Shown: piece after piece, positions 4,780-63,702 of the stretch
Layout of the letters: every line of letters begins with the position of its first letter
Position numbering within the stretch: the stretch's first letter is position 1
NCBI GenBank assembly: GCA_030018585.1
Contig: JASEHZ010000001.1
Location: 9,484 to 73,483, forward strand
Origin: Patescibacteria group bacterium
Lineage (GTDB): Bacteria > Patescibacteriota > Minisyncoccia > UBA6257 > GWB1-50-10
Direction of reading: 5' to 3'
Length of the DNA: 64,000 bases
Notes under the pieces: generated by a model
The model's input: the letters and a program-made list of their open reading frames with translations, nothing else
The model's database searches: none
Told to the model about the DNA's origin: nothing
Program-made: the position numbers and the translations under genes

Positions 4780-4865
4780 ATACCGAGCGAGTTAGGTTAC
4801 CAGCTTATTAGATTGAAGACGTCCCCTTTTACGAAAGAAAGGAGGTTTGAAGTGTAAGATTTAAA

Positions 4866-4905: not shown

Positions 4906-4981
4906 TGTCCACCCCCTGGGACTCGAACCCAGAGCCTCGCGCTTAAGAGGCGCTTGCTGCTACCAATTGAGCTAGGGGTGG
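4906..4981 (-). tRNA. tRNA-Lys (anticodon CTT), no encoded CCA
   Basis: Manual cloverleaf fold: acceptor CCACCCC/GGGGTGG, T-arm CTGGG-TTCGAGT-CCCAG, anticodon loop CTCTTAA. Confidence 0.65.
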
Positions 4982-5718: not shown

Positions 5719-5807
5719 ACTACTAATTATAGCACATAGGGCAGCTGCTCTACTAATTGGGCTATGAACGGATGAGCTTGCTTTACTAATTCTTTGATGT
5801 TTTACAA

Positions 5808-6369
5808 CTAATTTGTTTTATTGGAGCAAATATAAACAAAAGCCGGCGGTACGTTCATTAATACGAATTTCACTTCAATATTTTTAAAAAACGGTATAAG
5901 CGCAGTATGACGGTTTAGCGAATAGGCAAATTGGATATAAATTCCGTCTTTTGCAATTTCTTTTGATATAGCAGTAAGGAGTTTGTTAAGCGCCGGTTTT
6001 TTCCAACGGTCAAGCGGTAAAGACGAGAAAAAACAAATTGGTTTTTTAATTTCAATGGCTTTTAAATGTTTCTCAAAATTTTCAGCGCTGTCTTCGATAA
6101 TAATATAGCGGGGATCTTTTATGTTTTCCAGATTTTTAATGAAAATCTTGCTTATTTCAAAGGAAATCATTTTTTGGGTCTTTCCGCATTTTATTAAGCA
6201 ATGCTTTAGTGGTGTTGCCAGCGCCTGGTCCGAACTCAATGATGTCGCCGATTTTTTTAAAATCAATCGCTTTGATCATTTTCTTTATGAGTTGAGGCGA
6301 ACTGGGCGTAACCGCGCCCAAGGTTTTCGGTTTTCTCATATATTCTTTCAGGAATTTGATTTTTTTCAT
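5808..6369 (-). pseudogene. Class I SAM-dependent methyltransferase (COG3963/PmtA-like), split by a frameshift
   Basis: 70-aa ORF 6157-6369 holds GAVTPSS...EFGPGAGNTT SAM-binding motif; 152-aa ORF 5808-6266 continues with MNVPPA-type motif in another frame; T6 run at ~6171-6176 in the overlap. Confidence 0.45.
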
Positions 6370-6371
6370 TT

Positions 6372-7241
6372 TTATCCGCTTATATACGAAATAATTAAAA
6401 CGCTCGCAATAGCAATAATAATGCCAAAAATTTGATGGCGCTGAAGTTTTTCTTTGTTAATAAAAACGCCTAAAAGCACGGTAAACGCAATATAGCTTTC
6501 GCTGATTGTTGTTGCAACGGAAATCGCTATAAAACTTGCGGCATAAGCGTAAAAAATCCAAGCCATGTTATCTAAAATACTTTCGGCCATGAGAATTCTC
6601 GGATGATATTTTATGTCAGTCCAAATACTTTTAAATTGGCCCTTGGCGACAATATAAACAACGCAAAAAACCGTAAAAATTAAATTAGTAAACCAAATAG
6701 TAAGAAGTGGCGAAGTGCTTTGGCTTGATGCGCCAACCAGAAAATTTACAAGTCCCATTACAATTGCACCAATTCCGGCAAACATCACGCCCCTTTCTAG
6801 AAGTCTTTTGTGATAATGGAGATGAGCGTGATGAGTCGTGACGCTTAGCGTGATGCCGATAAAAGTAACAGTTACTAAAAAAAGTTGGGGAAGTGATAAT
6901 TTTTCTCCCCAAAATAGGGCGCTTAAAGCGACCGTGATTGGCAGTTCAATGGCGAGAATCGGTTCGATAATTGCGAGTTTGCCGCGCTTCAATGCTTCAA
7001 AATCAAAAAGCGCAGCAAAAAATATTACTACGCCGGTTAAAGAAAGAAGAATTAATAAATGAGGGGTATGGAAAAAAGCATTAAGTTCAGAATAAATAAA
7101 AGGAAAAATCGCGATTACTCCGACGATGCCAATATAAAAAAGCGTTTTAAAATCACCGAAAATCCGCGTTGCGCGCTGAATTGAAAAATCGCCAAATCCC
7201 CAGGAAAGAAGCGCTAGTAATGAAAAGATTATTCCTAGCAT
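6372..7241 (-). CDS. EamA/DMT-family transporter (10 TM)
   Basis: 289 aa, two internally repeated hydrophobic halves typical of DMT/EamA. Confidence 0.6.
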   Translation of the reverse strand: MLGIIFSLLALLSWGFGDFSIQRATRIFGDFKTLFYIGIVGVIAIFPFIYSELNAFFHTPHLLILLSLTGVVIFFAALFDFEALKRGKLAIIEPILAIELPITVALSALFWGEKLSLPQLFLVTVTFIGITLSVTTHHAHLHYHKRLLERGVMFAGIGAIVMGLVNFLVGASSQSTSPLLTIWFTNLIFTVFCVVYIVAKGQFKSIWTDIKYHPRILMAESILDNMAWIFYAYAASFIAISVATTISESYIAFTVLLGVFINKEKLQRHQIFGIIIAIASVLIISYISG

Positions 7242-7247
7242 AATATT

Positions 7248-7322
7248 GCGTCCCCAGAAGGACTTGAACCCTCAACCTCCGCGTCCGAAGCGCGGCGCTC
7301 TATCCAATTGAGCTATGGGGAC
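7248..7322 (-). tRNA. tRNA-Arg (anticodon TCG), no encoded CCA
   Basis: Manual fold: acceptor GTCCCCA/TGGGGAC, anticodon stem CCGCG/CGCGG loop CTTCGGA, T-arm GAGGG-TTCAAGT-CCTTC. Confidence 0.65.
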
Positions 7323-7493
7323 AAAGGTGTGGGGTCGACAATAATTACTTTATCGCATTTTTTTGAAAATAAAAAGTCGTTTTACCCAGCATTAAAAAAG
7401 CCGCAGGTTGTGTTTGCGGCTAATTTTTATAATAAATCAAAATGCTTTTGATAAATCAGATTATTGAGATTTTAGTGCTGGGCTTTTGAGCGG

Positions 7494-7868: not shown

Positions 7869-8170
7869 AATTTCTCCTTTTTAAAACAGTTGCGCTTTAC
7901 TAGAAAATCAACTTCTTCAGCAAAAAGCGGATAAATTCTGCTTTCGGGTGGATTAGTTATACGACGTATCCAAAGAGCAACATGATCTTTGCCTTTGATT
8001 TTTTGAGAATACATACTTATTACTCGGTAAGTTCCTTCTGGTTTTGTATAACCATTTTTCATAGCCGGGTTGGCTAAAATTTTGCTGTCTAGCTTTACAA
8101 ACGGTTCAACCGTTTCGGTTTCGCCAAATCCGATTTTCTCCATTACATCAGCGAATTTTCTGAAAGTCAT
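7865..8170 (-). CDS. Hypothetical protein
   Basis: 101-aa ORF forming a two-gene unit with 7494-7868. Confidence 0.35.
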   Translation of the reverse strand: MTFRKFADVMEKIGFGETETVEPFVKLDSKILANPAMKNGYTKPEGTYRVISMYSQKIKGKDHVALWIRRITNPPESRIYPLFAEEVDFLVKRNCFKKEKL

Positions 8171-8264
8171 CTCATCTTTCCTTTCTTATGTTTGATAATT
8201 TAAAGATTCTGTTTTGATAATATATGCTTTAGCAAAATTTGTAAAGATACATTAAAATAAGTAT

Positions 8265-9728
8265 ATGCGAGTTGTTGTCGTGCCTAAAGAAATAAAAGAA
8301 ATTGCCGGTGTTTTAGAAAAAGCCGGTTTTGAAGCGTACTTAGTAGGCGGTTGTGTCCGTGATCTTTTAATTGGTAAAAAGCCGAAAGATTGGGACGTTG
8401 CGACAAATGCTAGGCCAGAAGAAATCCAGAAATTATTTTCCGATTCTGTATACGAGAATCAATTCGGCACAGTTGGCGTAAAAACCGAAAGTAGCGATTC
8501 CACGCTTAAAGTTATTGAAGTGACAACATATCGTATCGAGGGCAAATATACTGATAAGCGTCATCCGGACGAAGTTAAGTTCGCAAAAACCATTGAAGAA
8601 GATTTAGGCCGTAGAGATTTTACTATTAATGCTTTTGCCAAGGATTTGCTAAAAAAAGGAGAAGTTATTGATTTATATGATGGGCAAAAAGATTTGGAAA
8701 ACAAAATTATTAGAACCGTAGGCGATCCCAAGAAACGTTTTTGTGAAGATGCGCTTCGGCTTTTGCGGGCGATCAGATTTGCTTCAGAGCTTGGTTTTGA
8801 GATTGAAAAAAATACATTAGAAGCCATTCAGGAATGCGCTGGTTCTATTGAGGCGATTGCTAAAGAACGGATCCGCGACGAATTTGCAAAATTAATAATG
8901 TCGGATGGGGCAGCTCGTGGCATTATTTTATTGGAAGATGTCGGGCTTTTAAAATATATAATTCCAGAATTACGGGAAGGAATTGGTTGCTCACAAAACA
9001 AGCATCATATCTATACAGTTTTTGATCATAATGTTCGGGCGTTAAATTATGCGGTGGAGAAAAAATATCCGTTTGAAATTCGTTTGGCTTCGCTTTTTCA
9101 TGATATTGCCAAGCCTAAGACAAAAGCCGGCGATGGACCGGATTCGACTTTTTATAATCATGAAATTGTTGGCGCAAAAATAACTTTAAAAATTCTTGAT
9201 CGTTTGCGTTTTTCAAAAGAAATTATAGAAAAAGTAACTCATTTGGTAAGATGTCATTTGTTTTATTACAACGTTGGCGAAGTAACTGAAGCGGGTGTGA
9301 GAAGGTTTTTAAACCGGGTGGGACCGGAAAATGTTCCGGATTTAATAAAAGTGCGGGAAGCCGACAGAATAGGTTCGGGCGTGCCTAAGGCTGTGCCCTA
9401 TAAAATTCGCCATCTGCTTTTTATGATTGAAAAAGTAAAATCTGACCCGATTCATCCCAAAATGCTTGTTTTGCGGGGCGACGATATTATGAAAATTTTA
9501 AATATCCCGGCCGGGCCTAAAATCGGCCAGATTCTTTCAATTCTTTTGGAGGAAGTTCTTGATGACCCGAAAAAGAATAACCGGGAATATTTAGAATTTA
9601 GAGCTAAAGAGCTTAATCTATTTAGCGAAAAAGATTTAATTGCTCAATCAAAAAAAGCTAAAGAAAAGAAAGAGGAATTTGAGGGGGGAATTGAAAATGA
9701 AATGAAAAAGAAATATTATGTCAGGTAG
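8265..9728 (+). CDS. cca: CCA-adding tRNA nucleotidyltransferase (polymerase-beta head + HD domain)
   Basis: GGCVRDLLIGKKPKDWDVAT nucleotidyltransferase motif; HD-domain His/Asp cluster; 487 aa. Confidence 0.85.
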   Translation: MRVVVVPKEIKEIAGVLEKAGFEAYLVGGCVRDLLIGKKPKDWDVATNARPEEIQKLFSDSVYENQFGTVGVKTESSDSTLKVIEVTTYRIEGKYTDKRHPDEVKFAKTIEEDLGRRDFTINAFAKDLLKKGEVIDLYDGQKDLENKIIRTVGDPKKRFCEDALRLLRAIRFASELGFEIEKNTLEAIQECAGSIEAIAKERIRDEFAKLIMSDGAARGIILLEDVGLLKYIIPELREGIGCSQNKHHIYTVFDHNVRALNYAVEKKYPFEIRLASLFHDIAKPKTKAGDGPDSTFYNHEIVGAKITLKILDRLRFSKEIIEKVTHLVRCHLFYYNVGEVTEAGVRRFLNRVGPENVPDLIKVREADRIGSGVPKAVPYKIRHLLFMIEKVKSDPIHPKMLVLRGDDIMKILNIPAGPKIGQILSILLEEVLDDPKKNNREYLEFRAKELNLFSEKDLIAQSKKAKEKKEEFEGGIENEMKKKYYVR

Positions 9729-9770
9729 TAGAAGCTTGGCTTTTTTCAGCATTTCCCGCTAAAAGTAGAT

Positions 9771-9844
9771 CGGGGAGGAGTATGCCGGTAGTACGCACGC
9801 TTCGGGTGCGTGTAGACCGGGTTCGATTCCCGGCTCCCCGACCA
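9771..9844 (+). tRNA. tRNA-Pro (anticodon CGG) with encoded CCA
   Basis: Manual fold: acceptor CGGGGAG/CTCCCCG, anticodon stem CACGC/GCGTG loop TTCGGGT, T-arm CCGGG-TTCGATT-CCCGG, ends ACCA. Confidence 0.7.
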
Positions 9845-9871
9845 GACGAAACTTAAGAAAAACACCGAAAA

Positions 9872-10249
9872 TTATTTTTCAGTGTTTTTATCTTCATCAT
9901 TATTATTTTTCTTTTTGCGGATAAGGTGAGTAGCAACGCTAATTCCGGCAGCAAGTGCAGCAACAGTTCCGCCAACCCACCATTTTTTCTTAGCAAGAAA
10001 TTCTTTGACCCGATTGAATCGTTCATTAAACTTTCCGTTTTCAATTTCTTTTTTAAGCAAAGTTGCTTGGGCGGTTACTGTTTTTTCATCTTCTTCATTC
10101 CAATCGCAGAGTTTTTCGAGAGGTTTAATTACTTCCTCGTCATAATAAGAGCTATTGTAGGCGGCATTGGCCGTTGGTATATCGCATCGGCGTGGTATTT
10201 TTATAGCGCCGATTATTTTTTTTAATTTCGCTCGTTCTTTTTCAGTCAT
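9872..10249 (-). CDS. Hypothetical C-terminally membrane-anchored protein
   Basis: 125-aa ORF with C-terminal hydrophobic helix WWVGGTVAALAAGISVATHLI. Confidence 0.35.
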   Translation of the reverse strand: MTEKERAKLKKIIGAIKIPRRCDIPTANAAYNSSYYDEEVIKPLEKLCDWNEEDEKTVTAQATLLKKEIENGKFNERFNRVKEFLAKKKWWVGGTVAALAAGISVATHLIRKKKNNNDEDKNTEK

Positions 10250-10323
10250 GGCTCATTCTTTAGAATTATTAAAATTAACTTTTCTTATTATAGAATATAT
10301 GGCAGAATAAATAAAGTTTTAAA

Positions 10324-10447
10324 AGGGCCTATGGTTCAGTGGTAGAACGCGGTCCCGCCCATACTTCGTATAGCGGGGTTGCGATTTGTAAATAAAAATC
10401 TTATCATTTTTATACAAATCGGGAACATTCGCACTGTGCCCCGCACC
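10324..10447 (+). ncRNA. Unresolved tRNA-like structured element: tRNA-like acceptor+D-arm, two hairpins, then GCCCCGC-ACCA end
   Basis: GGGCCTATGGTTCAGTGGTAGAAC is a canonical tRNA 5' third but no matching 3' acceptor strand exists; hairpin CCCGCCATAC-TTC-GTATAGCGGG and long hairpin GCGATTTGTAAATAAAAAT...ATTTTTATACAAATCG follow; GCGGGGT pairs with GCCCCGC before ACCA. Confidence 0.3.
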
Positions 10448-10454
10448 AAATTTA

Positions 10455-10525
10455 TGGGGGTATAGTATAGTGGTAATACGCGGCATTCGCATTGCCGAGA
10501 CTCGGGTTCAATTCCCGATACCTCC
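10455..10525 (+). tRNA. tRNA-Ala (anticodon CGC), no encoded CCA
   Basis: Manual fold: acceptor GGGGGTA/TACCTCC (G3:U70 wobble), D-arm GTAT-AGTGGTA-ATAC, anticodon stem CGGCA/TGCCG loop TTCGCAT, T-arm TCGGG-TTCAATT-CCCGA. Confidence 0.7.
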
Positions 10526-10544
10526 ACTATTAAATTTTGGTGCG

Positions 10545-10582
10545 GGGTTGTCGAGACAGGAGTTCAATTCCCGATACCTCCA
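10545..10582 (+). repeat. Decayed duplicate of tRNA-Ala 3' end
   Basis: GTTCAATTCCCGATACCTCCAC at 10505-10526 recurs at 10561-10582; T-stem 5' strand mutated (TCGGG to AGGAG); copy ends ACCA. Confidence 0.55.
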
Positions 10583-10787
10583 CCAAGAGAAATTTTTCGA
10601 AAACATCACCCTTTTTATTTTTAATGGGATAGTATTTTTTTCTGGATGTTATTTAAGGGATGTCCGCTTGTGGTTTGGGGAAATAAACTGCGGATGGAAA
10701 TTGGTGCAATAAATATTTTGGATTTGCTTTGCCGCGCGGCATTACTTTATACGGGACGATCATTCTAGTGATATTTGGTTTTTTGTT

Positions 10788-11477
10788 TTAGAAGATACGG
10801 CGAATCAAATTTCTTATAGAAAGCATTCCATGCCGGAAAACCATTTCGCGCCACAATTTTTTGGGCCGGGTAATATTTTCAAATTTTTTTTCACGGATTG
10901 CTTTGAAAACCGAAGCGATATTTTTCGTTTCCATTTCAATTATGGCGTAATCTTTGTCTAGTCCCCAAAGATCGTGAGTGTCTGAAGAGGCGATAAAAGG
11001 AAGACTATATTTTTGGGCAATTTTTTCACCTTTTTTATTTCTATTAAATTGTTTGGAATAAAACCACGAATGTTCAATTGCATCAAAAAGATCAATATCG
11101 ATTTCAAGTTCGTTTTTTAAAGAATAGTTGCCGTAAAAAAAAGGATGAGGCGCGATAATAAATATTTCCGGATGTTCTTTTTTATATTTTCTTAATTCAG
11201 AAAATGTTTTTATTATTTCAATGTCTTTTTTTGTGTTTAGGATAAGAACGTGGCAATTTTCGATATTAAGTTCGACGCCGGAGATTAAAAGAATGCCGTT
11301 TTTTTTAGCGTATTTTTCGTATTCCTCGATATTAATAGATTTTTTGTGGCAGGTAAGAGCTAAAATATCAAAACCAAGCTCTTTTGCCCCATCAATGCCT
11401 TTTAAAAAAGTATAATTTATACCCTTGTCGTGAGGGTCATCGTTCGTGTGAAAATGCAGATTGGTCTTAAATTTCAT
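10788..11477 (-). CDS. PHP-domain metal-dependent phosphoesterase
   Basis: N-terminal HFHTNDDPHD motif and later His/Asp residues typical of PHP family; 229 aa. Confidence 0.65.
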   Translation of the reverse strand: MKFKTNLHFHTNDDPHDKGINYTFLKGIDGAKELGFDILALTCHKKSINIEEYEKYAKKNGILLISGVELNIENCHVLILNTKKDIEIIKTFSELRKYKKEHPEIFIIAPHPFFYGNYSLKNELEIDIDLFDAIEHSWFYSKQFNRNKKGEKIAQKYSLPFIASSDTHDLWGLDKDYAIIEMETKNIASVFKAIREKKFENITRPKKLWREMVFRHGMLSIRNLIRRIF

Positions 11478-42517: not shown

Positions 42518-44623
42518 ATGCCACGTCAATACCCAATAGAAAAAACTCGTGATATAGGAATAATAGCCCACATTGATGCGGGCAAAACAACCGTAACCGA
42601 ACGGGTGCTTTTTTATACCGGCGTTTCCCACAAAATCGGCGAAGTCCATACCGGTGACACGGTTATGGATTGGATGGAACAGGAACGTGAACGCGGTATT
42701 ACTATTACTTCTGCGGCTACAACTTGTTTTTGGATTCCGACTTATCATAATGATGATAAAAAATATGAGCATCGGATTAATTTGATTGATACGCCGGGAC
42801 ACATTGATTTTACGGTTGAAGTGAAACGTAGCTTGCGTGTATTAGATGGCGCGGTAGTTGTTTTTGACGGCGTGGCTGGCGTTGAGCCGCAATCAGAAAC
42901 CAATTGGCGTTATGCTGACGAATACGGCGTGCCGAGAATTTGTTTTATTAATAAGCTTGACCGGATGGGTGCGAATTTTGAAAAAGATGTTCAATCGATT
43001 CATGAGCGTTTAACGCCTTATGCGGTTGTGCTTCAGTTGCCGATCGGCATTGAAGATAAACTTGAAGGCGTTTTGGATCTTTTGACCCGCAAGGCTTATT
43101 ACTTTGAGGGTGAAAAAGGAGAAAAAATTATTGAAAAGGAAATTCCGGCCAATATGAAAGAATTAGTTGAAAAAAAGCGGCACGAGCTTGTGGAAAAAAT
43201 TGCGGAAACCGACGATAAATTAATCCACGCATATTTGGAGGGCAAAGAAATTCCCGTGGCGGATTTGAAAAAAGCATTGCGTGCTGCAACTTTGAAAGTT
43301 CGATTAGTGCCGATTCTTTGCGGTTCGGCCTTGAAAAACAAAGGTGTTCAATTGGTGCTTGACGCAGTAATTGATTATTTGCCTTCGCCAGTAGATTTGC
43401 CGCCCGTAAAAGGTATAAATCCCAATAATCATAATGAAGAAACAAGAAAACCCGATGATAATGAGCCTCTTTCAGCTTTAGCTTTTAAAATTGCCGCTGA
43501 TCCATTTGTCGGGTCTTTAACGTATTTCCGCGTTTATTCTGGTGTCTTGAAGCGCGGCAGTTATGTTTTAAATTCAACTAAAAACAATCAGGAACGTATT
43601 GGCCGGATTGTCCGGATGCATGCCAATCATCGTGAAGAAGCAGAAGAAATTTGCGCTGGCGATTTAGGCGCGATTGTTGGTTTAAAAAATACCACAACTG
43701 GTGACAGTTTGGTTGATCCGGAACATCCGGTAGTTCTTGAGAATATTACTTTCCCGGAGCCTGTTATATCAATTAGAATTGAACCAAAAACAAAAGCCGA
43801 TCAGGAAAAAATGGGTATTGCCTTACATCGTTTGGCCGAAGAAGATCCGACTTTCAGAGTGAGAGGTGATTTAGAAACCGGCGAAACAATTATTGACGGC
43901 ATGGGCGAGCTTCATCTTGAAATTATTGTTGATCGCATGAAGCGGGAATTTAATGTCGAGGGCAATGTTGGCCGGCCGCAAGTTGCTTATAAAGAAACTA
44001 TTAAAGGGAAAGCTGATGCGGAAGGAAAATATATCCGTCAGTCCGGCGGCCGCGGTCAATATGGCCATGTTTGGCTTAAAATAGAGCCGTTGGAACGGGG
44101 CAAGGGATTTGAATTCATTGACGAGATTAGGGGCGGTGTTATTCCCCAGGAATTTATTACGCCGATTGAAAAAGGTGTTCGGGAAGCCGCGGAAAAAGGC
44201 GTGCTTGCCGGTTACCCGCTAACCGATCTTAAAGTTATTTTGTATGATGGTTCGTTCCACGAAGTTGATTCATCAGAATTTGCTTTTAAGATTGCCGGTT
44301 CAATAGCTTTACAGGAAGCGGCGAAGCAGGCGAAATTGGTTTTGCTTGAACCGGTAATGAAAGTGCAGGTGATTATGCCGGCTGATTTCTTAGGTGACGT
44401 GACTGGAGATTTAAGTTCCCGCCGGGCAAAGATAAACGCAATGGGCGAGCGAATTAATGTGAGAGTGGTTGATGCAACTGTGCCTTTGGCTGAAATGTTC
44501 GGGTATGTCACGAATTTGCGTTCTATAACTCAAGGACGGGGCTCGTTTACTATGGAGTTTAGCCATTATGAAGAAGTTCCAAAAAGTGTTGCCGAGCTTA
44601 TTATTGAAGGGAAGAAAAAATAA
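42518..44623 (+). CDS. fusA: Elongation factor G
   Basis: [10 protein letters not shown]1 motif, DTPGHIDF, 701 aa. Confidence 0.95.
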
Positions 44624-44689
44624 AACATTTTCTTTCTTCATCAGCCAAAATCTTCGCTCGAATAAATTTAACTCTTTCGTCGTCAAAAG

Positions 44690-44762
44690 CTAACGGAATT
44701 CATCGAACTCAACCCCGACGTACGGTCGGGGGATTTAAACAACGATGAATTCCTGTTTTTTA
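44690..44762 (+). terminator. Long compound terminator after fusA
   Basis: GGAATTCATCG...inner CCCCGAC-GTAC-GGTCGGGG...CGATGAATTCC followed by TGTTTTTT. Confidence 0.65.
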
Positions 44763-44875
44763 CCTCCCTTTTTGTTAATTTATTATTTCGCTTCGATAGG
44801 CTTCTTCAAAAAGAAAATGTTTTATTGTGTATTGAAGGAAGGGGTGGATAGTGTATAATAATTTAATAAACAAAG

Positions 44876-44901
44876 AGCCGCTTGTGAGGAGCGGCTTTTT
44901 T
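44876..44901 (+). repeat. Terminator-like hairpin AGCCGCT-TGTGAGG-AGCGGCT-TTTTTT; left copy of a 20-nt direct repeat (TTGTGAGGAGCGGCTTTTTT)
   Basis: Same 20-mer recurs at 47000-47019; preceded by TATAAT-type promoter at ~44853. Confidence 0.55.
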
Positions 44902-44906
44902 GTGTT

Positions 44907-44939
44907 CTTGACAGAATAATACTAATCATGCTATCATAT
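44907..44939 (+). promoter_or_regulatory. Sigma70-type promoter TTGACA-18-TATCAT for the downstream 4-gene block
   Basis: TTCTTGACAGAATAATACTAATCATGCTATCATAT; same cTTGACAGAAT core as the 12700 promoter. Confidence 0.5.
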
Positions 44940-45108
44940 ATATGTTCTTTAATAACTCGTTTTATTGATTATTATTCAAGAGAAATTCTGGATTAAAGCA
45001 AATTAATTGCGGTCTGGGTTACTTCATTTGCGTTAGATCAAGCGTTTCTAGAAGTAGATGAAGTAGAGTTCAATTGTGTTCCACAAAAACAAATGAAAGG
45101 AAAAAATT

Positions 45109-45513
45109 ATGGAACGAAAATTGAAACATCTCGCTGGCAAGAGATTTTATATTGCCTACAATAATGGCGTATATGCTATAGCTGACGAGAAAAGTTACCA
45201 CGCTTTTCTTGGCGGTAAATATCTAATTGAAACTATTTTGTCAGAAGTAAGCAATTGGAATATTTTCATCTTCGTGCGATCGGATCGTTATCAACGTGAT
45301 CATTGGTTTCTCGGCACGCATGAAATGTTTGAGCGACTTATTCAAGAACTTAAAAATAGCGGTGCTAGGATCATTGATATTGGTCAAGATATGTATGTAC
45401 CATTTTCAAATGGTAACCCTCCTAATCGGTTCGAGTGGCATTTAATACGTCGAGCGTATGACTTTTTTAAAGTCTTTAACATTCGGCTAGAAGAATTTAG
45501 AGAGGAAGTATAG
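45109..45513 (+). CDS. Hypothetical protein (no recognisable motif)
   Basis: 134-aa ORF, first of four tightly packed genes. Confidence 0.4.
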   Translation: MERKLKHLAGKRFYIAYNNGVYAIADEKSYHAFLGGKYLIETILSEVSNWNIFIFVRSDRYQRDHWFLGTHEMFERLIQELKNSGARIIDIGQDMYVPFSNGNPPNRFEWHLIRRAYDFFKVFNIRLEEFREEV

Positions 45514-45515
45514 TT

Positions 45516-45875
45516 ATGAAGCGAAGAAATTTTGTCCGCGTACTGAAACTACTTTGGTTACTCTTCGTTATTCTAACTTTTATACTGTTAGGTTGGGGGC
45601 ATCCGCCTCCAGGGCTTTTATTAATTATGTTTCCGCTTTACTTTATTCTACTTTTCATGAGCCCAATTAAAATAGCTGTAGGGATGTTATTATGTGCGGC
45701 ATTAGTGGTTGCTTCATTAATAAATATTAAATTATATTACGAACTTAATGACAAATATTCTTTCTTTATTAAAGAAGAAATCATTGATAAACGGAAGATT
45801 ATTAGTGAGCTGATTGAATCTAGTCTTGCGTTTTTGCCGGCTGGGATTCTGTCTTTGATCTATATATTACTTTAA
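45516..45875 (+). CDS. Hypothetical 3-TM membrane protein
   Basis: 119 aa, starts 3 nt after previous stop. Confidence 0.4.
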   Translation: MKRRNFVRVLKLLWLLFVILTFILLGWGHPPPGLLLIMFPLYFILLFMSPIKIAVGMLLCAALVVASLINIKLYYELNDKYSFFIKEEIIDKRKIISELIESSLAFLPAGILSLIYILL

Positions 45876-45923
45876 TCTAACTTTCAATCTTTAAGACTTC
45901 CCCATTTAAAATGGGGAGTTTTT

Positions 45924-46316
45924 TTGCTACCATTTTTTATGAATAGAATAGAAAATTATTTTTTCGTTCCGGAAGCAGAAAAAGAACTGCCAAAAAATTT
46001 TGAATGTTTGAAAATATCACTTGAAAAAGAATTGGAAGAGAAGAATATTATTTCTGATGTCGATTTGGCGAAATTAGTCGAAGTTCAGGAAAATAAACCG
46101 ACCAAGGTTTTTTACCACGCGACGCCGTTCAATAAATGGCAGAAAATAGAACCAAATTATTTTGATAGAGATGAGATTATTCTTGCGGGAGGTCACTTTT
46201 CTTTTAAAGCCGATAATTTATCTTATGGCAGTTATGATCCGTCGCAATTAATAGAGTTTCGTGTTATCGATCCTTATGAAGAATTGAAAGACACATCGAC
46301 TACTGGCGAGGGTTAG
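45924..46316 (+). CDS. Hypothetical protein
   Basis: 130-aa ORF. Confidence 0.35.
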   Translation: MLPFFMNRIENYFFVPEAEKELPKNFECLKISLEKELEEKNIISDVDLAKLVEVQENKPTKVFYHATPFNKWQKIEPNYFDRDEIILAGGHFSFKADNLSYGSYDPSQLIEFRVIDPYEELKDTSTTGEG

Positions 46317-46364
46317 CAAGTTGGTCATGAAGCTATTGCAATACGGCCAGTAGTTTTAAAGAAG

Positions 46365-46970
46365 TTGGATGACGGGTTTTATAAAAGCAGTGAAATAGCG
46401 ATTCAATCAGGATTAGACAAAAATTACTATGGTACTCTAAACGAAGAAGAAGATAAAATAAACGTTCGTCAAATAACGTATATTATTGATAAAGAAGCAA
46501 CAGAAAAAGGCGATATAAATGAATTTTTGCATGATCCAGCTTTTGCTTCCAAATATTTAAATGAACAAGTTAAAGAATCTTTGGATGATCCAGTGCGTTG
46601 GATGAATGAAAAGTCGGCGATGGAATTTATTCGTTTTTATGAGTTAGACGAAAAAATCTTCGATCAACCAAAAATTTTAAAAAGTTTGGAAGAAATAAAG
46701 CTAAAATTTGGAGGATGGTTTCATAAAGCATTAGCAAAAGAAAATCAGGTGGTTGAAGTTTTGGCCGAAGAGGGTATGACGTGGCAGGAAAAAACAGACA
46801 AAGTTTTACAACGCGTGATCCAAGGTGAGAAATTTATTGAATTCTATTTAAACGAGTATTTGCCTCGTCTTTTATCAGATGGTGGTTTATATAATATCAA
46901 TGAAAAAGAGCTAGAGGAATTAAAGGCAGGCGTATTAAAAAAGATAGAGCAGTATAAACTCTTAAAATAG
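46365..46970 (+). CDS. Hypothetical acidic protein
   Basis: 201-aa ORF. Confidence 0.4.
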   Translation: MDDGFYKSSEIAIQSGLDKNYYGTLNEEEDKINVRQITYIIDKEATEKGDINEFLHDPAFASKYLNEQVKESLDDPVRWMNEKSAMEFIRFYELDEKIFDQPKILKSLEEIKLKFGGWFHKALAKENQVVEVLAEEGMTWQEKTDKVLQRVIQGEKFIEFYLNEYLPRLLSDGGLYNINEKELEELKAGVLKKIEQYKLLK

Positions 46971-46999
46971 ATTGTGATAGCTAATTTAGTGGAATTTCG

Positions 47000-47019
47000 T
47001 TGTGAGGAGCGGCTTTTTT
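47000..47019 (+). repeat. Right copy of 20-nt direct repeat TTGTGAGGAGCGGCTTTTTT (degenerate terminator)
   Basis: Identical 20-mer to 44882-44901; 5' half of the hairpin is decayed here. Confidence 0.55.
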
Positions 47020-47102
47020 AATTGATTCTCCTCGTGGCAAGTTTTGACCTTCCATGGTCAGGGTAGTTGACAGGGAATATTAAAATCTTGAAAATATAGT
47101 TT

Positions 47103-47660
47103 ATGGAACAAAAATTAGAAAATCTTAAACCATCATTAAATAAAATAAAAAAATCAAAAAAAGTTTTTGTAGTCGTTGCTTTTGCAATTATTGCGCTTGG
47201 ATTTTTTATTTGGCTGATTCTTTTAAATTTAAAATTTAACAACCAAGTTAAATTTGAAGAAAAATACGCTAAAGCGCGAAAATCTTTATCTGGCTTTGAA
47301 AAAATAATGCGTGATGATGTTTATGGCGGTAAAACTCCGCAAGAAACGCTGGATTTGTTCATTGCCGCCTTAAAAAAGGACGACTTGGAATTGGCCAGCG
47401 AATATTTTTTATTGGAAACTAATTTGGAGGATAAAAATTATTTAACTAAAAATAAAGCTTTAGCAGCCTTATTGGATTTTAAAAAGCAGAACAAAATTCA
47501 ATACATAATTGATTTACTTTCACGAGCAGTGCCAGCGTCCACTTCCTCTCTTTATGAAGGCGATTATAATTTTGTTGCTTATGACGGTAAAATGTTAGTT
47601 TCAGAAATTAATCTGGAATTTAATAAATATTCTCAAGTGTGGAAAATCCAGAGTTTTTGA
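47103..47660 (+). CDS. Hypothetical membrane-anchored protein
   Basis: 185 aa, N-terminal TM. Confidence 0.35.
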   Translation: MEQKLENLKPSLNKIKKSKKVFVVVAFAIIALGFFIWLILLNLKFNNQVKFEEKYAKARKSLSGFEKIMRDDVYGGKTPQETLDLFIAALKKDDLELASEYFLLETNLEDKNYLTKNKALAALLDFKKQNKIQYIIDLLSRAVPASTSSLYEGDYNFVAYDGKMLVSEINLEFNKYSQVWKIQSF

Positions 47661-47661
47661 T

Positions 47662-50067
47662 ATGAATTTCAAAAAAATTAAAATTATTTTTTTAATTTTA
47701 AGCTTTTTATTTATTCCATTTAATTTTATTTTTGCTTATAACACCGAAACTCACGCTTATTTAACTAAAGAAATAATTGATTTTTATAATAGTAATTTTA
47801 AAACCGCTTCAATATCGAAGAATTTTGAAGACGATTTAATTAACGGTTCAAGACACGAGGATATTTTTCCTCGCTGGATGAATCATTTTTATGATCCGGT
47901 TTACGATCGCGGCTTATCAAGTATTATTTTAGGCAATTGGGAAAAATCAAAAGATTGGGCCGAAAACGAGAACAGCCAAAACAATATAATTTATAAGGTT
48001 TCTTATTTGCCAGGTTATTTGCTTGGTATTTTCGGGAAAAAAGAAGAACAAGATTATTCAGTTTTTACTTGGCAAAAAGCCATTGATTATTGGCTTGAGG
48101 GTAGGAAAGGCGAGGCTTTGTTTGTGCTCGGCCATATTTTGCATTTGATTGAAGATTCTTCAGTGCCGGATCATACGCGCAATGACGCCCATCCTAACGA
48201 CAGTCCTTATGAAAATTGGACCAAAAAATACATTCTAAAAAATCCCGACATTGGTTTAAAACAAAGGTTGCAAGGGAAAAATCCGATTTCATTTCCTAAT
48301 TTGGCAGAGTACTTTAATAGTTTGGCAAAATACGCGAATAATAATTTTTACAGCAAAGATACGATTGGTATAACCGGCGGTTATAAATTGCCGGATGTAG
48401 ATTATTTTAGCGTTGAGAGCGGAGTAAATTACGGCGTAAAAACCGATTTTGAATTCGGCGATTACCATTTAATCAAGACTCCCCAGAAAGCTTTGGGCGT
48501 AAGTTTTGATAACGAGGATTTTTTAAAAGACAATTTCGTTTTAAATGATTACTGGTCGCGGTTATCAACAAAAGCGGTTCAGCATGGCGCTGGTGTGGTA
48601 AATTTATTTTTTCAGGAAATTAGAAGGATTGAAGCGAGTAATATTGAAAGTAAAAATTCTTTTTTCGCGAACATTTACGAAGCATTAAAAAATCAAATCT
48701 CCGCGATTATTGAAATATTAAAAGATTCTAATAATGATGTTTCTGATAGCGTTTTGTCAATTGAAAAAATAATTGAAGAAATGAGAAAACAATCGGTAGC
48801 AAGCGAAGATGACGTTGAAGATCTAGAAGGGGTGGTTCAAGATTTTGGCGTGGCAGTAAACAAACCAATGATTTTGAACCGTGAAGTTCAAGAAAAACTT
48901 CAAAAAATATTAGCAAATTTAAATGATTTGGTGGATGAATTAAAATCATTTTCGTCTGTGAATAATTCCGGAAATCAAGATCATCCTGCGGCTCCGACGC
49001 TTGTTTTTGGCGGCGGCAGTCCGCCGGTTCAGGTTAGTGAAAATCAAGAAAACAGCGAGCAAAATCAAAATACCCCCAATGATTCTAATAGTTCTAGTAG
49101 TAGCAGTTCTGCACAATCTGAAATAGCAGAAACAGTGACATCAACTAGCAGCGCCGAAAATAGCAGCAGTATTTCAGCCGAAGCCTCAAGTACGCCGGTT
49201 GTTTATCCCAACTTGAACTTCAGCGCTATTTTTAATTCAAGCACCAAAGACATATTTTTCAGTTGGAATAGTTTGATTGATGCAAGCAGTTCAACTATTT
49301 TTATTGTCTATGAAATTTATGATATTTCGAGTTCTAGTGAAATGATTTTTGAAACTTCAAGTACAACTGAATTCAAAAAAGAAATAAATGAATTCGGTCG
49401 GGACTATAGTTTTTTGCTTAGCGTAGTTGATGGGGGTAATAATGAAGTAGCGTCGAGTTCGGCAACGGTTTCTGTGCCTGAAATTATTCTTGAACCCATT
49501 CTAACAACTTCAACCACAAGATTTTATATTGTTCAAACCGAACAAAATTCGTGGAGCAATATAATCGGCCGAGTCGCGATAAATTCTTTTGACCCGGATA
49601 GCGCAAGTTTCCAAAGTTTTATATTCCAAGAAGATTTTTCTTTTAATAAAGTTGTTCTTCGTTTTCAGTGCGGCGAGGGGTGCGGCGATACGGCTAATGT
49701 GCGTCTTGTAGTTTATAAAGACAGTGGAAATAATGCGCCGGATTTTAGCAATCTGCTTGGTGTCGCGTTTCATTATTTTGATTGGAATGATATTCATCCC
49801 GCGCCGGATCAAGATATTTCTTTTTTATTTGCCGCGCCAATCAGAGCAGAAAAAGAAAATCGTTATTGGTTTTTATTGGACGTGGCAAATTACTCTGACG
49901 CGCGGGCGTATTTCAGGGAAAGAGGAAGCGATTGGCGGAATGCCTTAATGAAAGGCGTTGATGTTTATGAATGGGGGGGGCGGGCGTTGGTTCCGGGCCG
50001 GGCATGGGTTCTGGTTCTGCTAGTTTTGGCGGATTTTATTCTGACGGTCCGGCTGACTGGTATATGA
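47662..50067 (+). CDS. Large secreted protein with N-terminal zinc-dependent phospholipase C / S1-P1 nuclease-like domain, Ser-rich linker and C-terminal beta-rich domains
   Basis: Signal peptide; His-rich metal motifs HAYLTKEI... and GHILHLIEDSSVPDHTRND; low-complexity SSSSSS tract; 801 aa. Confidence 0.5.
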   Translation: MNFKKIKIIFLILSFLFIPFNFIFAYNTETHAYLTKEIIDFYNSNFKTASISKNFEDDLINGSRHEDIFPRWMNHFYDPVYDRGLSSIILGNWEKSKDWAENENSQNNIIYKVSYLPGYLLGIFGKKEEQDYSVFTWQKAIDYWLEGRKGEALFVLGHILHLIEDSSVPDHTRNDAHPNDSPYENWTKKYILKNPDIGLKQRLQGKNPISFPNLAEYFNSLAKYANNNFYSKDTIGITGGYKLPDVDYFSVESGVNYGVKTDFEFGDYHLIKTPQKALGVSFDNEDFLKDNFVLNDYWSRLSTKAVQHGAGVVNLFFQEIRRIEASNIESKNSFFANIYEALKNQISAIIEILKDSNNDVSDSVLSIEKIIEEMRKQSVASEDDVEDLEGVVQDFGVAVNKPMILNREVQEKLQKILANLNDLVDELKSFSSVNNSGNQDHPAAPTLVFGGGSPPVQVSENQENSEQNQNTPNDSNSSSSSSSAQSEIAETVTSTSSAENSSSISAEASSTPVVYPNLNFSAIFNSSTKDIFFSWNSLIDASSSTIFIVYEIYDISSSSEMIFETSSTTEFKKEINEFGRDYSFLLSVVDGGNNEVASSSATVSVPEIILEPILTTSTTRFYIVQTEQNSWSNIIGRVAINSFDPDSASFQSFIFQEDFSFNKVVLRFQCGEGCGDTANVRLVVYKDSGNNAPDFSNLLGVAFHYFDWNDIHPAPDQDISFLFAAPIRAEKENRYWFLLDVANYSDARAYFRERGSDWRNALMKGVDVYEWGGRALVPGRAWVLVLLVLADFILTVRLTGI

Positions 50068-60148: not shown

Positions 60149-60150
60149 AA

Positions 60151-60168
60151 GGTTCAATTGATTGAACC
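60151..60168. promoter_or_regulatory. Palindrome GGTTCAAT-TG-ATTGAACC (copy 2), abutting the regulator stop codon
   Basis: Exact 18-mer. Confidence 0.55.
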
Positions 60169-60489
60169 TTGGAGGCGTTGTCTGAATATTTAATATTAGA
60201 TGTATATGAATAGATATAAAAGTAGATACAAAAACGGATATATGCGAATAGAACGTAAATAGATATTATTTGGATAAATGCGAGTGCTTTAATAGATATG
60301 AAAATGGATGAACAGGGGGGTGAACAGATATAAGTAGATGTTATTCAAGCGAGTATGTACAAGCAGGTACGTGTGAATATATGTTTTCTACAAAAATTGA
60401 AACGGGAAATTATAGAGTGTTATAATCTAGTAAAGCTCCGTGGTTTTTTTGATTTTTTTGACTGGCTGGGAATTCAGAAAGAAATGAAA

Positions 60490-60507
60490 GGTTCAATTGA
60501 TTGAACC
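60490..60507. promoter_or_regulatory. Palindrome GGTTCAAT-TG-ATTGAACC (copy 3), ~80 nt upstream of surface-protein gene 60590
   Basis: Exact 18-mer. Confidence 0.55.
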
Positions 60508-60589
60508 TCGGGGATATTTGATAAATATACGAGGTTTTTGAAATTTTTAAAAAAATTCCTTCAGAGTTTTTAAAACCATTTTAATATTA

Positions 60590-62731
60590 ATGAAAAAAAC
60601 ACTAAAATTCATATTAATTTTTTCACTGGTTTTGGGATGGGTTTTTTCTGGCTGGCCAAAGATTTGGCAAAATCCGAGAATTCCGCCGGAAATTCAAATA
60701 GCACAAGCAGCAACACTTGAATATGTTGGAGGGGCATCTGGCACGGGAACCGGAGCAACATATAGCGTTTCTCTTACCGGCCTTACAGGTGGCATTGGAA
60801 GTTCTGCGGCGGCAGGTGACCTTGTCATCGTTGTTACCGGATGGGCGAGTGCAGCCGATGGTAATCCTGGCGTTACCACACCCACTGGCTATACCGAAGT
60901 GTATGACCTTTACAAAAGTGACACTAGAGATGTTAATATGAGTGTCAACTGGAAGATTATGGGAGGAACTCCGGATACTTCTGTTACGGTAAGCGGCCAC
61001 AACAACGCGGCAAACGGAGGCGCGACTGTAGTTCATGTCTGGCGCGGAGTTGACTCGACAACGCCGATGGACGTTACTCCTCCTACTGGTGTCACCGCTG
61101 CCAACGCCTCGTCGCCAGATAGTCCGAGCATCACGCCAGTTACGAGCGGCGCGTATGTTTTATCCGTTGGTATGGGAACAGGGGATACCACACCACTGAC
61201 TAAAACTGCGCCGACTGGCTATGGCAATGCGCTATCTGTTGCGGGCAACGGCTCCACCATGTCGATTATCGCGAATATCGCGTCTAAGGTATGGAGCGGC
61301 AGCGGAGCGGAAGACCCTGCGGCATGGACCGGCGGCGAAACAAGCACTTCAGACTCGTGGGCCGCCGGCACTTTAGCAATACGGCCAGCGCCGTCTTTTA
61401 CCCAATCTGCTTACAGATTTTTTAATAATATAGATTCAACTGATGTTGGTTCAGTTTTGGCGAATCAAGATACGTCGGCAACGCTAAGTTCGAGTGGTGC
61501 TGAATTTCGTTTGCGTATGCTTTTACATATCGGCACAAGTCGGCTTGATGCTTCCGGCCAGCAATTCAAACTCCAGTTCGCCCAGATGTCCGGCACCTGT
61601 GATACGGTTTTTTCCGGCGAGTCATATGCTGATGTTACTGCGGCAACAGTTATTGCTTATAACAATAATACTACGCCGGCTGATGGCGATAATTTAACTG
61701 CCAATGCCAATGATCCGATTCACGGCGCAGATACTATTGTTAATCAGGATTATGAAGAATTAAATAATTTCACCAATTCTGTTGCGGCAATTCCTTCTGG
61801 TCAAGACGGTAAGTGGGATTTTTCTTTAAAGGACAATGGTGCTTCAGCAGAAACTGCTTATTGTTTTCGTGCAGTTTTATCGGACGGTACCTTATTTACT
61901 GCAGGTGGCGGTAGTTATAGCGTGGTTCCGGAAATTACTACGGCTTCGGCTAATTCAGCGCCAACAGTTTCTAATGTTGTTTTAAATAATTTGAACCCCA
62001 TTACTCTTACGCCGAACACCACAACTGCTGTTTTAGTTGTGGCGTCAACAACCGATTCTAACAACAATATTAGTTATGCTACTGGAACGATTTATCGGAC
62101 TGGCATTGGAGCAACCTGCGCGGCTGATAATTTAAATTGTTATCAGTTAGCAAGTTCAAGCTGCAGTTTTTCGGGCAGTACGAGTACTGTTACTTGTTCG
62201 GCTAATATCTGGTATTTTGCGCAAGCAACTGATTCTTCCTCTTCTTTTTCCGGCGACACCTGGTCAGGCAAGATTGCGGTTACTGACAGCGGCGGGCTTT
62301 CCGGCAGTTCTTCCACGGCGTCGCAGGTTGAGTTAAATACACTTCTTGCTATTGATGTTACGTCGGGAACAATTGATTACGGGACTTTAGTGCCGAATAC
62401 AAATACGGGTTCGACAAATCAAACTTCAACCGTAAAAAATGTTGGCAATTCTTCAACTACGCTTCAGCTTTCTGCTTCGCAGACATTAACTTCCGGTTCA
62501 AATTCAATTACCACAAGTTCTCAGCATTACGCAACTTCATCGTTTACTTTTGGCGGCAGTGAAGCGCAATTGAGCGATACGCCGACGACTGTAACAGGAT
62601 TTTCATTAACATCGCCCACAAGCACGAACGCGGTCTCAAGCATTGTTTATTGGGGCTTGAATGTCCCGGCTAGTAAGCCAACTGGCACTTATAGCGGGAT
62701 TAATGTTTTTACAGCGGTTTTTGTTCAGTAA
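60590..62731 (+). CDS. Giant Ser/Thr/Gly-rich surface protein (paralog A)
   Basis: 713 aa, N-terminal TM; C-terminal ~170 aa nearly identical to 62785 ORF. Confidence 0.45.
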   Translation: MKKTLKFILIFSLVLGWVFSGWPKIWQNPRIPPEIQIAQAATLEYVGGASGTGTGATYSVSLTGLTGGIGSSAAAGDLVIVVTGWASAADGNPGVTTPTGYTEVYDLYKSDTRDVNMSVNWKIMGGTPDTSVTVSGHNNAANGGATVVHVWRGVDSTTPMDVTPPTGVTAANASSPDSPSITPVTSGAYVLSVGMGTGDTTPLTKTAPTGYGNALSVAGNGSTMSIIANIASKVWSGSGAEDPAAWTGGETSTSDSWAAGTLAIRPAPSFTQSAYRFFNNIDSTDVGSVLANQDTSATLSSSGAEFRLRMLLHIGTSRLDASGQQFKLQFAQMSGTCDTVFSGESYADVTAATVIAYNNNTTPADGDNLTANANDPIHGADTIVNQDYEELNNFTNSVAAIPSGQDGKWDFSLKDNGASAETAYCFRAVLSDGTLFTAGGGSYSVVPEITTASANSAPTVSNVVLNNLNPITLTPNTTTAVLVVASTTDSNNNISYATGTIYRTGIGATCAADNLNCYQLASSSCSFSGSTSTVTCSANIWYFAQATDSSSSFSGDTWSGKIAVTDSGGLSGSSSTASQVELNTLLAIDVTSGTIDYGTLVPNTNTGSTNQTSTVKNVGNSSTTLQLSASQTLTSGSNSITTSSQHYATSSFTFGGSEAQLSDTPTTVTGFSLTSPTSTNAVSSIVYWGLNVPASKPTGTYSGINVFTAVFVQ

Positions 62732-62784: not shown

Positions 62785-63702
62785 ATGATAAAGACAATTT
62801 TGAGAATTTTTGGTGTTTTATTAATGACAGTTGCTGTTGGTGGTAGTTTGCTTTTAGTTTTACAAACCGTGATGGCGGTTAATATTTCAAGTTCAGTTAT
62901 TGTTGGCAATGCTGCGCCAACAGTTTCAGCTGTTTCAATAAATGGCGGTAATCCTATTACTTTAACTGCTAATGCGACAACTTCAGTGGTGGTTAATTTT
63001 ACTGTAACTGATAATAATGGCTGTTCCGATGTTTTTATGGGCGGTAATACCACAACCACTTCTTACCGGTCTGGTGTTGGCGGAAGTTGTACGGCTAGTA
63101 ATTTAAATTGTTATACCGTGACTTCCGTAACTAATAATTGTGCGGGCGGCAATAATGCTAATGCGACAGCGACTTTTGAAATTTATTATTTTGCTAATGC
63201 TACCGACGCCAGTTCTTCGTATTCGGCTCAAAATTGGCTGGCTCAAGTTTATGCCCGCGATGCTTCATCAGCAACCGGTACCGCTACTTCCACGGGCGTA
63301 GAATTAAATACTTTAACAGCCATTAATGTCACGACTTCTTCAATTAATTACGGCACTTTAGCGGCAGGCAGCAATACTGGCGCAACTAATCAAGTAGCAA
63401 CAAGTACTAATGCCGGCAATTCCTCAACCACACTTCAGCTTTCTTCTTCGCAAACTTTAACTTCCGGTTCTAATACGATTGCCACAAGTTCTCAGCATTA
63501 CGCGACTTCAACATTTAGTTTCGGCGGTAGTGAAGCGCAATTGAGCGGCACGCCGACGACTGTAACAGGATTTTCATTAACATCGCCCACAAGCACGAAC
63601 GCGGTAAGCCAGGCAGTATTTTGGGGTCTTGAAATCCCGGGCGGAACAGCAACCGGAACTTATAGCGGCGTTAATGTGTTTTCATCACTTTTCCAGCCGT
63701 AG
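62785..63702 (+). CDS. Ser/Thr-rich surface protein (paralog B, matches C-terminal half of 60590 ORF)
   Basis: 305 aa; shares AANSAPTVS..., NLNCY..., ELNTL.AI.VTS..I.YGTL and SQHYATS.F.FGGSEAQLS.TPTTVTGFSLTSPTSTNAVS blocks. Confidence 0.45.
   Translation: MIKTILRIFGVLLMTVAVGGSLLLVLQTVMAVNISSSVIVGNAAPTVSAVSINGGNPITLTANATTSVVVNFTVTDNNGCSDVFMGGNTTTTSYRSGVGGSCTASNLNCYTVTSVTNNCAGGNNANATATFEIYYFANATDASSSYSAQNWLAQVYARDASSATGTATSTGVELNTLTAINVTTSSINYGTLAAGSNTGATNQVATSTNAGNSSTTLQLSSSQTLTSGSNTIATSSQHYATSTFSFGGSEAQLSGTPTTVTGFSLTSPTSTNAVSQAVFWGLEIPGGTATGTYSGVNVFSSLFQP

Follow-up and report, generated by a model that had tools for sequence, protein, structure and literature searches.

We describe here a block of about 2.1 kb that lies between two copies of a 20-nt direct repeat behind the str operon of a Patescibacteria group bacterium (contig JASEHZ010000001.1); the window referred to throughout is the whole stretch of 64,000 nucleotides that was analysed. 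The window has a GC content of 37%, and its 45 long open reading frames (ORFs) end in TAA (26), TAG (11) or TGA (8). Upstream of the block lie an M50 peptidase gene and then rpsL, rpsG and fusA, which make up the str operon. The block itself holds two small genes, here called O1 and O2, and a longer one, O3/4, which an in-frame stop codon divides into ORF3 and ORF4. The features from fusA to the right end of the block are as follows, in window coordinates.

42518..44623, forward strand: fusA (elongation factor G), an ORF of 701 amino acids (aa), last gene of rpsL-rpsG-fusA and left context of the block.
44695..44761, forward strand: compound hairpin (GGAATTCATCG...CGATGAATTCC) followed by TGTTTTTT, the probable true fusA terminator (minimum free energy fold of 44600-44905, z -3.7; terminator role predicted).
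44872..44901, forward strand: terminator hairpin with the left repeat copy (fold of 44872-44900, -18.2 kcal/mol, z -3.8).
44908..44937, forward strand: O1-O2 promoter, TTGACA-18-TATCAT with TG before the -10, the best match (11/12) in the 10 kb scanned.
45021..45064, forward strand: conserved stem-loop in the O1 leader (leader 44938-45108, about 170 nt), from RNAalifold and pair counts over four leaders.
45109..45513, forward strand: O1, soluble, 134 aa, from an uncharacterised family whose PFSNG motif is invariant.
45516..45875, forward strand: O2, a membrane protein of 119 aa (3-4 hydrophobic segments) whose translation is coupled to that of O1 (counterpart in locus L081 34% identical, E 5e-9).
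45898..45925, forward strand: O1-O2 terminator (hairpin 45898-45918, z -3.7).
45939..46970, forward strand: O3/4, a gene of about 343 codons with an in-frame TAG at 46314-46316; homologues span both halves.
47000..47019, forward strand: right repeat copy, 29 nt past the O3/4 stop, at the junction with resident DNA; it folds no better than shuffled sequence (z +1.26).

The initial annotation of this DNA had counted four genes in the block. ORF3 (45939-46316) and ORF4 (46365-46970) share one frame, and the TAG at 46314-46316 is all that separates them. A search of 5.8 billion proteins with the joined O3/4 as query returned four full-length homologues of 335-372 aa in which both halves were covered, and a profile search added a fifth of 376 aa. 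Since these homologues cover ORF3 and ORF4 jointly, the number of genes in the block comes down to three. The O3/4 family is extremely rare: the seven entries found in all are the five full-length homologues, the C-terminal half of the window copy held at NCBI, and the window copy itself. ORF4 is identical to NCBI protein QMD50_00355, and D1, the next gene to the right, is identical to QMD50_00360; the annotation of both names a MAG (metagenome-assembled genome) of a Patescibacteria group bacterium.

The internal TAG falls in the most conserved stretch of the protein, GEG[Q/T]QVGHEAIA. The closest homologue, in L081, has CAG at this codon with identical flanking bases. Recoding of TAG as a sense codon was considered and rejected, given that TAG ends O1, O3/4 itself and 11 of the 45 long ORFs and that the window holds no suppressor tRNA. 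Because TAG also serves as the terminator of O1 and O3/4, we take the internal one to be a nonsense mutation, a polymorphism or an error. A C-to-T nonsense mutation would knock out, or at least split, O3/4 in this genome. Translation of the gene starts at ATG 45939, in keeping with its homologues, which begin MN, and a -10-like TACCAT (45928-45933) stands 5 nt before this ATG, where it overlaps the O1-O2 terminator region. The same layout recurs in L081 (TATAAT, 6 nt, ATG) and in L084/L086. The placement of the hexamer suggests that the O3/4 mRNA may be leaderless. The encoded protein has a very conserved N-terminal core, for which a structure model built from 4 sequences reached a pLDDT below 50, and its C-terminal half is a helical-repeat domain with generic matches only.

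The other two genes form a unit of their own. The block had been described as a run of co-oriented, tightly packed genes under one TTGACA-18-TATCAT promoter; orientation, packing and promoter were all confirmed, but the terminator hairpin at 45898-45918 parts ORF2 from ORF3, so that the block comprises two transcription units. The O1 homologues in L081, L087 and L090 are preceded by equivalent TTGACA promoters, and in all contexts recovered for close O1 relatives such promoters are followed by leaders of about 130-180 nt. The stem-loop in the window leader has counterparts in L081 (about 4510-4560), L087 and L090. Compensatory changes were seen in 8 of its 14 pairs, and 91% of cells were paired across the four leaders, compared with 35-49% when the partners were slid. 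No match to this stem-loop was found in Rfam, and it could be a candidate for a new cis-regulatory RNA.

The family of O1 is sparse and has no name, with 32 representatives at E<1e-3. O1 gave no match in Pfam and no sequence match in the PDB. Its fold is confidently predicted and has no PDB match, with weak structural matches to RNase H-like folds; conserved acidic or catalytic residues are absent. A small or N-terminally membrane-embedded protein is encoded directly after O1 in L081, L087 and L090/L091. Since a membrane protein follows O1 in every context recovered for close relatives, we regard O1-O2 as a conserved pair. As a separate observation, the O1-O2 pair of L090 is flanked by GTCCGTCTGG (about 5650-5745) and GGGATT[G/C]GAACCGT (about 7300-7330), which resemble a tRNA 3' end. 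Attachment (att) sites of a tRNA-like kind were considered here and rejected: ARAGORN and Rfam detected no tRNA, and the local alignment was not significant.

The place of the block in the genome was compared with that in relatives using 80 fusA-linked loci, from a scan with one genome per species, and the distance from fusA to tuf was counted in 60 fusA loci with enough flanking sequence. In the closest Patescibacteria loci, fusA shows 79-85% identity to that of the window. None of O1, O2, O3/4, D1 or the following gene, D2, was found in any of the 80 loci. The tuf gene lay within 600 nt of fusA in 28 of the 60 loci, 0.6-6.6 kb away in 21, and outside the available flank in 11. The fusA-tuf junction is thus often interrupted in Patescibacteria, and the slot is naturally variable. 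Three close relatives illustrate this, each with a different arrangement. L013, the closest species-level genome (fusA 82% identical), has the order fusA-tuf-rpsJ-S10 and no insertion. L002 (fusA 79% identical) carries a 1251-aa surface protein and a 342-aa protein between fusA and tuf (2229-7085). L086, which came from a metagenome scan and has the closest fusA of all (85% identical), carries an O3/4 homologue and three small or secreted proteins ahead of tuf-S10 (insert 7959-11075). The same slot is thus taken by quite different inserts in other Patescibacteria. As an aside, the tuf gene of L013 (12227-13734) looks split into several frames, probably by a long-read assembly error and not through biology.

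In the window, tuf does not directly follow fusA as in a canonical str operon. A search of the whole 64 kb with an EF-Tu motif and tblastn found no tuf, and none lies in the 19 kb downstream. Since the block alone is insufficient to account for this, a larger rearrangement has separated str from tuf and S10 as well. The initial annotation had expected tuf after fusA and had proposed a check of synteny in relatives; the search bears out the absence of tuf, and the comparison shows that the expectation was overstated for a slot in which relatives so frequently hold other genes.

The 20-mer TTGTGAGGAGCGGCTTTTTT occurs in the window in two exact copies, at 44882-44901 and 47000-47019, and no third copy was found in the window at up to 3 mismatches. 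Two matches were obtained in 0 of 100 shuffles, and the pair is among only a handful of exact repeats of at least 20 nt in the window. The 20-mer was likewise not present in any of 85 loci fetched from other genomes. An exact repeat that brackets the block, and is not expected by chance, was therefore upheld. It had been proposed that acquisition would be contradicted if the block were conserved lineage-wide at the same position with tuf elsewhere, and the repeat were a common terminator found genome-wide. Neither was seen, with the block found at 0 of 80 fusA loci and the 20-mer limited to two copies in the window and none in the 85 fetched loci.

The two copies differ in setting. The left one makes up the loop, 3' arm and T-run of the hairpin at 44872..44901. 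The bases adjoining the two copies are unrelated, and upstream only 2 of 14 positions agree. Because the right copy lacks a fold and its flanks are unrelated, we read it as a sharp junction; the suggestion that it is a hairpin whose 5' half has decayed did not hold. The left hairpin had also been taken for the strong terminator of fusA. It is a genuine terminator hairpin, but it sits 250 nt past fusA, and the compound hairpin at 44695-44761 is the likelier fusA terminator. The fusA 3' region (44624-44901) is in addition unusually structured, with a hairpin of about 100 nt (44771-44870) directly preceding the repeat-bearing terminator. This region could be a small RNA or a 3'-UTR (untranslated region) element; Rfam returned only noise for the fusA-O1 intergenic region.

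The same genes were recovered elsewhere with different repeats. L081 is an independent Logan assembly in which uvrA-uvrC precedes O1 (70% identical), an O2 that had not been called (34%) and an O3/4 that is intact (67%). This block is bracketed by a 28-nt direct repeat, identical at 26 of 28 positions, beyond which identity falls to 5 of 17, and the repeat-to-repeat spacing is 2137 nt as compared with 2118 nt in the window. The L081 repeat consists of the uvrC 3' end, with ...SYHRALRGARSFL* encoded on the left and ...SYHRALRGVKSFA*, in frame, on the right, and the two copies look like diverged alleles of this gene end. Comparison of the junctions in the window with those in L081 showed no significant similarity (p 0.07-0.8), so the repeats come from the respective targets and not from the element. 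A derivation of the window's left junction from a uvrC 3' end, as in L081, was tried and rejected, with no tblastn signal and no significant junction similarity.

In a third locus, L082, O3/4 stands alone between an rmlD-like gene and a glycosyltransferase gene, and a 37-nt repeat (29/37) duplicates the 3' end of rmlD. Its right scar consists of MKGVVLAGGNGTGP, a 42-nt start of an rmlA-type nucleotidyltransferase gene, fused to RRWPEALRDYLA*, the end of rmlD. Two other loci offer plausible parental configurations: L092 has a tightly packed rmlD-O3/4-rmlA, and L083 has rmlD-glycosyltransferase-O3/4. The order in L082 would be the expected product of an illegitimate join between L092-like and L083-like versions of the locus, and we take it as direct evidence that such joins occur between locus versions with different arrangements. 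No flanking repeat accompanies O3/4 in L092, nor in L086, where the homologue (55% identical) comes directly after fusA.

Taken as a whole, we lean towards reading the region as an accessory module of about 2.1 kb, belonging to a narrow lineage, that was put into a variable slot behind the str operon by illegitimate or short-homology recombination. The module would have arrived through recombination with DNA of a related genome. This may have happened by one homologous anchor and one illegitimate join, known as homology-facilitated illegitimate recombination (HFIR), or by way of a circular intermediate and a single crossover at a short identical stretch. The 20-nt repeat would then be the scar, in which the left copy sits in the intact terminator and the right copy is a piece of the resident terminator pushed downstream. 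No transposase or integrase encoded by the element would take part. The initial annotation had proposed acquisition by site-specific or illegitimate recombination. Acquisition itself is supported by the absence of the block from the 80 fusA loci and by the L081 copy with its different repeat; of the two modes, the evidence leans to the illegitimate, short-homology one.

What was found at the block is a duplicate of resident sequence beside the insert, sharp non-homologous junctions and no mobility genes. HFIR-like scars fit better than transposition or a dedicated integrase because each locus has its own repeat, because the repeats vary in length and are sharp-edged and allele-like, because one of them is fused to an unrelated gene fragment, and because mobility genes and terminal inverted repeats are missing. 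The block encodes no transposase, no terminal inverted repeats pair its ends, and the termini in the window and L081 are dissimilar. The repeats measure 20 nt in the window, 28 nt in L081 and 37 nt in L082, the latter two imperfect, which is not a target duplication of fixed length. The block encodes no integrase, nor do the genes beside it in the window, L081 (8.8 kb) or L082, and the independent insertions do not share an att core, the window and L081 repeats being unrelated. A tandem duplication of the whole block was rejected as the source of the window repeat, as it would require several precise deletions.

Several points weigh against this interpretation. No empty-site allele was obtained for the window's genome. 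Part of the block may be old at its present position, because L086, the closest fusA relative, has O3/4 directly after fusA without a repeat. Recombination at only 20 identical bases is inefficient. An exact, sharp-edged 20-mer is also what one expects of an att core or a target-site duplication. The functional guess given below has gene neighbourhood as its sole source, and the O3/4 core model has a pLDDT below 50. A further point concerns the resident genes on the right of the block.

47103..47660, forward strand: D1 (QMD50_00360), membrane-anchored, first resident gene right of the block, of a widespread Patescibacteria family (25 homologues).
47662-50067: D2, an 801-aa secreted protein with a serine-rich linker; its N-terminal part weakly matches zinc-dependent phospholipase C (E 3e-4, below the Pfam cutoff).

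The start of D1 (47101-47125) matches that of O1 (45107-45131) at 21 of 25 bases, which far exceeds the agreement with other gene starts. The Smith-Waterman score is 33, compared with 15.8±2.5 in shuffles, and 0 of 3000 shuffles scored as high. The peptides begin MEQKLENL in D1 and MERKLKHL in O1, and the sister metagenome-assembled genome (MAG) QMD65 has a 73%-identical D1 with a conserved N-terminus. The similarity may be a second patch of the scar or a coincidence, and a simple single-scar model leaves it unexplained.

The alternative that survives best, although we judge it rather unlikely, is that the block is an integrase-less cassette moved in trans by a tyrosine integrase encoded elsewhere, in which case the repeats would be attL and attR cores. 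The uvrC 3' end in L081 and the terminator behind the str operon in the window are typical integrase targets. The element-side arm in L081 provides uvrC with a replacement C-terminus, the break in identity after 28 nt resembles the edge of an att core, and the repeat spacing is nearly constant between the window (2118 nt) and L081 (2137 nt). However, repeats and termini are unrelated between these two loci, and one integrase with its attP cannot serve both. Neither the window block, nor the 8.8 kb of L081, nor the surroundings of L082 encode an integrase, and the rmlA fragment in the L082 scar points to illegitimate joining. Among known systems, integrase islets and cis-mobilisable elements are likewise discrete gene blocks set between direct repeats of 20-28 nt at the 3' ends of conserved genes or operons, and, as with them, the reading frame in L081 has its end restored from the element side. 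The present case differs from them in that no integrase lies in or near the block, there is no tRNA target, and the repeats are wholly different at the two insertions.

It is also unlikely that the block is ancestral at this site and vertically inherited, the 20-nt repeat being functional (a re-used terminator half, for example) or coincidental. The O3/4 homologue directly after fusA in L086 (fusA 85% identical) favours such a history, as does the GC content of the block, which at 33.5% is near the 35.6% of neighbouring non-ribosomal genes. Yet L086 has neither O1 nor O2, and L013 and L002 lack the block altogether. The right repeat copy forms no hairpin and hence does not function as a terminator, chance would not be expected to yield an exact pair of 20-mers, and L081 carries the block elsewhere with a repeat of its own.

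Searches with the block proteins bear on the remaining possibilities. No significant match was obtained for any of them, or for the neighbouring proteins, in Pfam, PHROGs, PADLOC or NCBIfam, in agreement with the initial annotation, which had recognised no motifs. Profile searches of the PDB gave nothing, and viral, phage and plasmid collections held no relatives. Exact-protein look-ups returned no record for the window's own products of O1 and fusA or for P0002, the copy of ORF4 at NCBI. A toxin/immunity or defence-like module, the function first suggested for the block, is accordingly improbable, whether as a toxin-antitoxin or an anti-phage system, for instance with O2 as the toxin and O1 as its antidote. 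O1 and O2 do make up a compact pair of tightly coupled genes with a strong promoter and a patchy distribution, and a distant O1 relative (P0020, in L088) lies among MazEF/PemK and M78-peptidase genes. In the same way two-gene toxin-antitoxin and abortive-infection modules are compact operons of a soluble and a small transmembrane protein, patchily distributed and with a strong promoter of their own. The block differs from these modules in that none of its proteins is homologous to a catalogued toxin, antitoxin or defence protein. The best PADLOC match was to a CARF model at E 0.012, below any meaningful score, and neither Pfam nor NCBIfam gave a significant match. O1 has no conserved acidic or catalytic residues despite its weak RNase H-like structural matches, and the absence of relatives from the phage, plasmid and viral collections leaves no association with such elements.

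We consider very improbable an autonomous mobile element in which O3/4 (or O1) would be a new recombinase or homing enzyme that duplicates 20-37 nt of its target. O3/4 is the sole gene common to the repeat-flanked units of the window, L081 and L082, and its position varies: it follows fusA or uvrC, or lies before or after the glycosyltransferase gene of rml clusters. Its family is extremely rare (7 entries among 5.8 billion proteins), its core is densely conserved in an enzyme-like manner, and the window copy has been inactivated by mutation, a common fate of decaying selfish genes. On the other hand, there are no terminal inverted repeats, and the repeat length is variable. The copies in L086 and L092 have no repeats and sit tightly within operons like ordinary genes, only one copy is found per contig, and recombination between locus variants explains the L082 scar better. 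We give even less credence to the specific form in which O3/4, possibly helped by O1-O2, is an unrecognised DNA-recombining or homing enzyme that makes a unit of 1.2-2.1 kb self-mobile in Patescibacteria, inserting behind conserved genes and duplicating 20-37 nt of their 3' ends. Were it true, the unit would represent a new class of minimal mobile element without homology to known transposases or integrases. Lastly, an assembly artefact is hardly credible: the window does come from a MAG, and an exact repeat of 20 nt is as long as a node (k-1) in a de Bruijn graph with k=21, but a chimeric join at a shared 20-mer would place that k-mer once at the junction and not twice around an insert, and the independent Logan assembly L081 repeats the order O1-O2-O3/4 with an analogous imperfect repeat.

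As to function, the most likely guess, from gene neighbourhood, is an accessory role associated with the envelope or membrane. We suggest this because O2 is a membrane partner, three O3/4 homologues lie in dTDP-sugar (rml) operons, and the neighbours D1 and D2 are anchored and secreted, respectively. Viewed against these results, the initial annotation was broadly right in its evolutionary inference and wrong in its gene count and functional guess.

Further features of the window were noted away from the block. The exact 20-mer GATGAATCCCGTTAGAAGCA is present at 20002-20021 and 25108-25127; the genes 20127..21986 and 25239..27110, which are similar in size, begin about 110 nt further on. Pairing is possible between either copy and a TGCTTCTAACG[A/G]GATG that overlaps the start codon, which looks like a shared start-sequestering leader, and L090 has a similar CCCGTTAGAA hairpin. 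At 10456-10583, the last 22 nt of a tRNA-Ala (GTTCAATTCCCGATACCTCCAC) recur 34 nt past the tRNA, resembling an att-type remnant of an integrated or excised element. At 60149-60508, a 21-nt palindrome AAGGTTCAATTGATTGAACCT occurs twice, 339 nt apart, around a non-coding stretch rich in (T)AGATA/GGATA that appears iteron- or origin-like. Finally, 62511-62634 and 63482-63605 share exact repeats of 19-56 nt at a constant offset of 971 nt, which indicates that the neighbouring genes 60590..62731 and 62785..63702 share a recent partial duplication.

If the module was indeed acquired by illegitimate or short-homology recombination, two bodies of earlier work are pertinent. HFIR was defined in PMC3240628, and it has been invoked for comparable displaced 3' remnants at type VI secretion system and Rhs loci (PMC5361080). 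The loci described here resemble such cases in that foreign or variant DNA lies beside a conserved anchor gene, and the displaced resident 3' end is kept as a short duplicate. The duplicates in L081 and L082 are allele-like, and the L082 scar joins fragments of rmlA and rmlD. They differ in that HFIR has not been demonstrated in Patescibacteria, and in that the window duplicate is a 100% identical 20-mer of a non-coding terminator and not the end of a gene.

The second body of work concerns the rpoBC-str-S10-spc supercluster. In Proteobacteria, the str-S10 supercluster usually breaks up via small multigene insertions, which larger rearrangements sometimes follow (Brandis, Cao & Hughes 2019, PMC6735719). 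The window is like these insertions in having a few unrelated genes with their own promoter between conserved translation operons, and in the lack of mobility genes among the inserted genes. Its relatives are graded in a comparable series, from contiguity (L013) through a small insertion (L002/L086) to an insertion with a larger rearrangement in the window itself. It differs in belonging to Patescibacteria and not Proteobacteria, in retaining its direct-repeat scar, and in that its insert occupies the fusA-tuf interval within the classical str operon instead of the gap that separates str from S10.

The insertion is real but fairly ordinary, and by itself it reveals no new biological system. 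The locus does flag a sparse PFSNG family, a very rare 340-aa family with a strongly conserved core, and a covarying leader hairpin. If our reading of its origin is true, the region would be a clean natural example of the break-up of the str/S10 supercluster in the ultra-small genomes of Patescibacteria, with the scar still legible, in which the small promoter-bearing insertion would have come first and the larger rearrangement afterwards.

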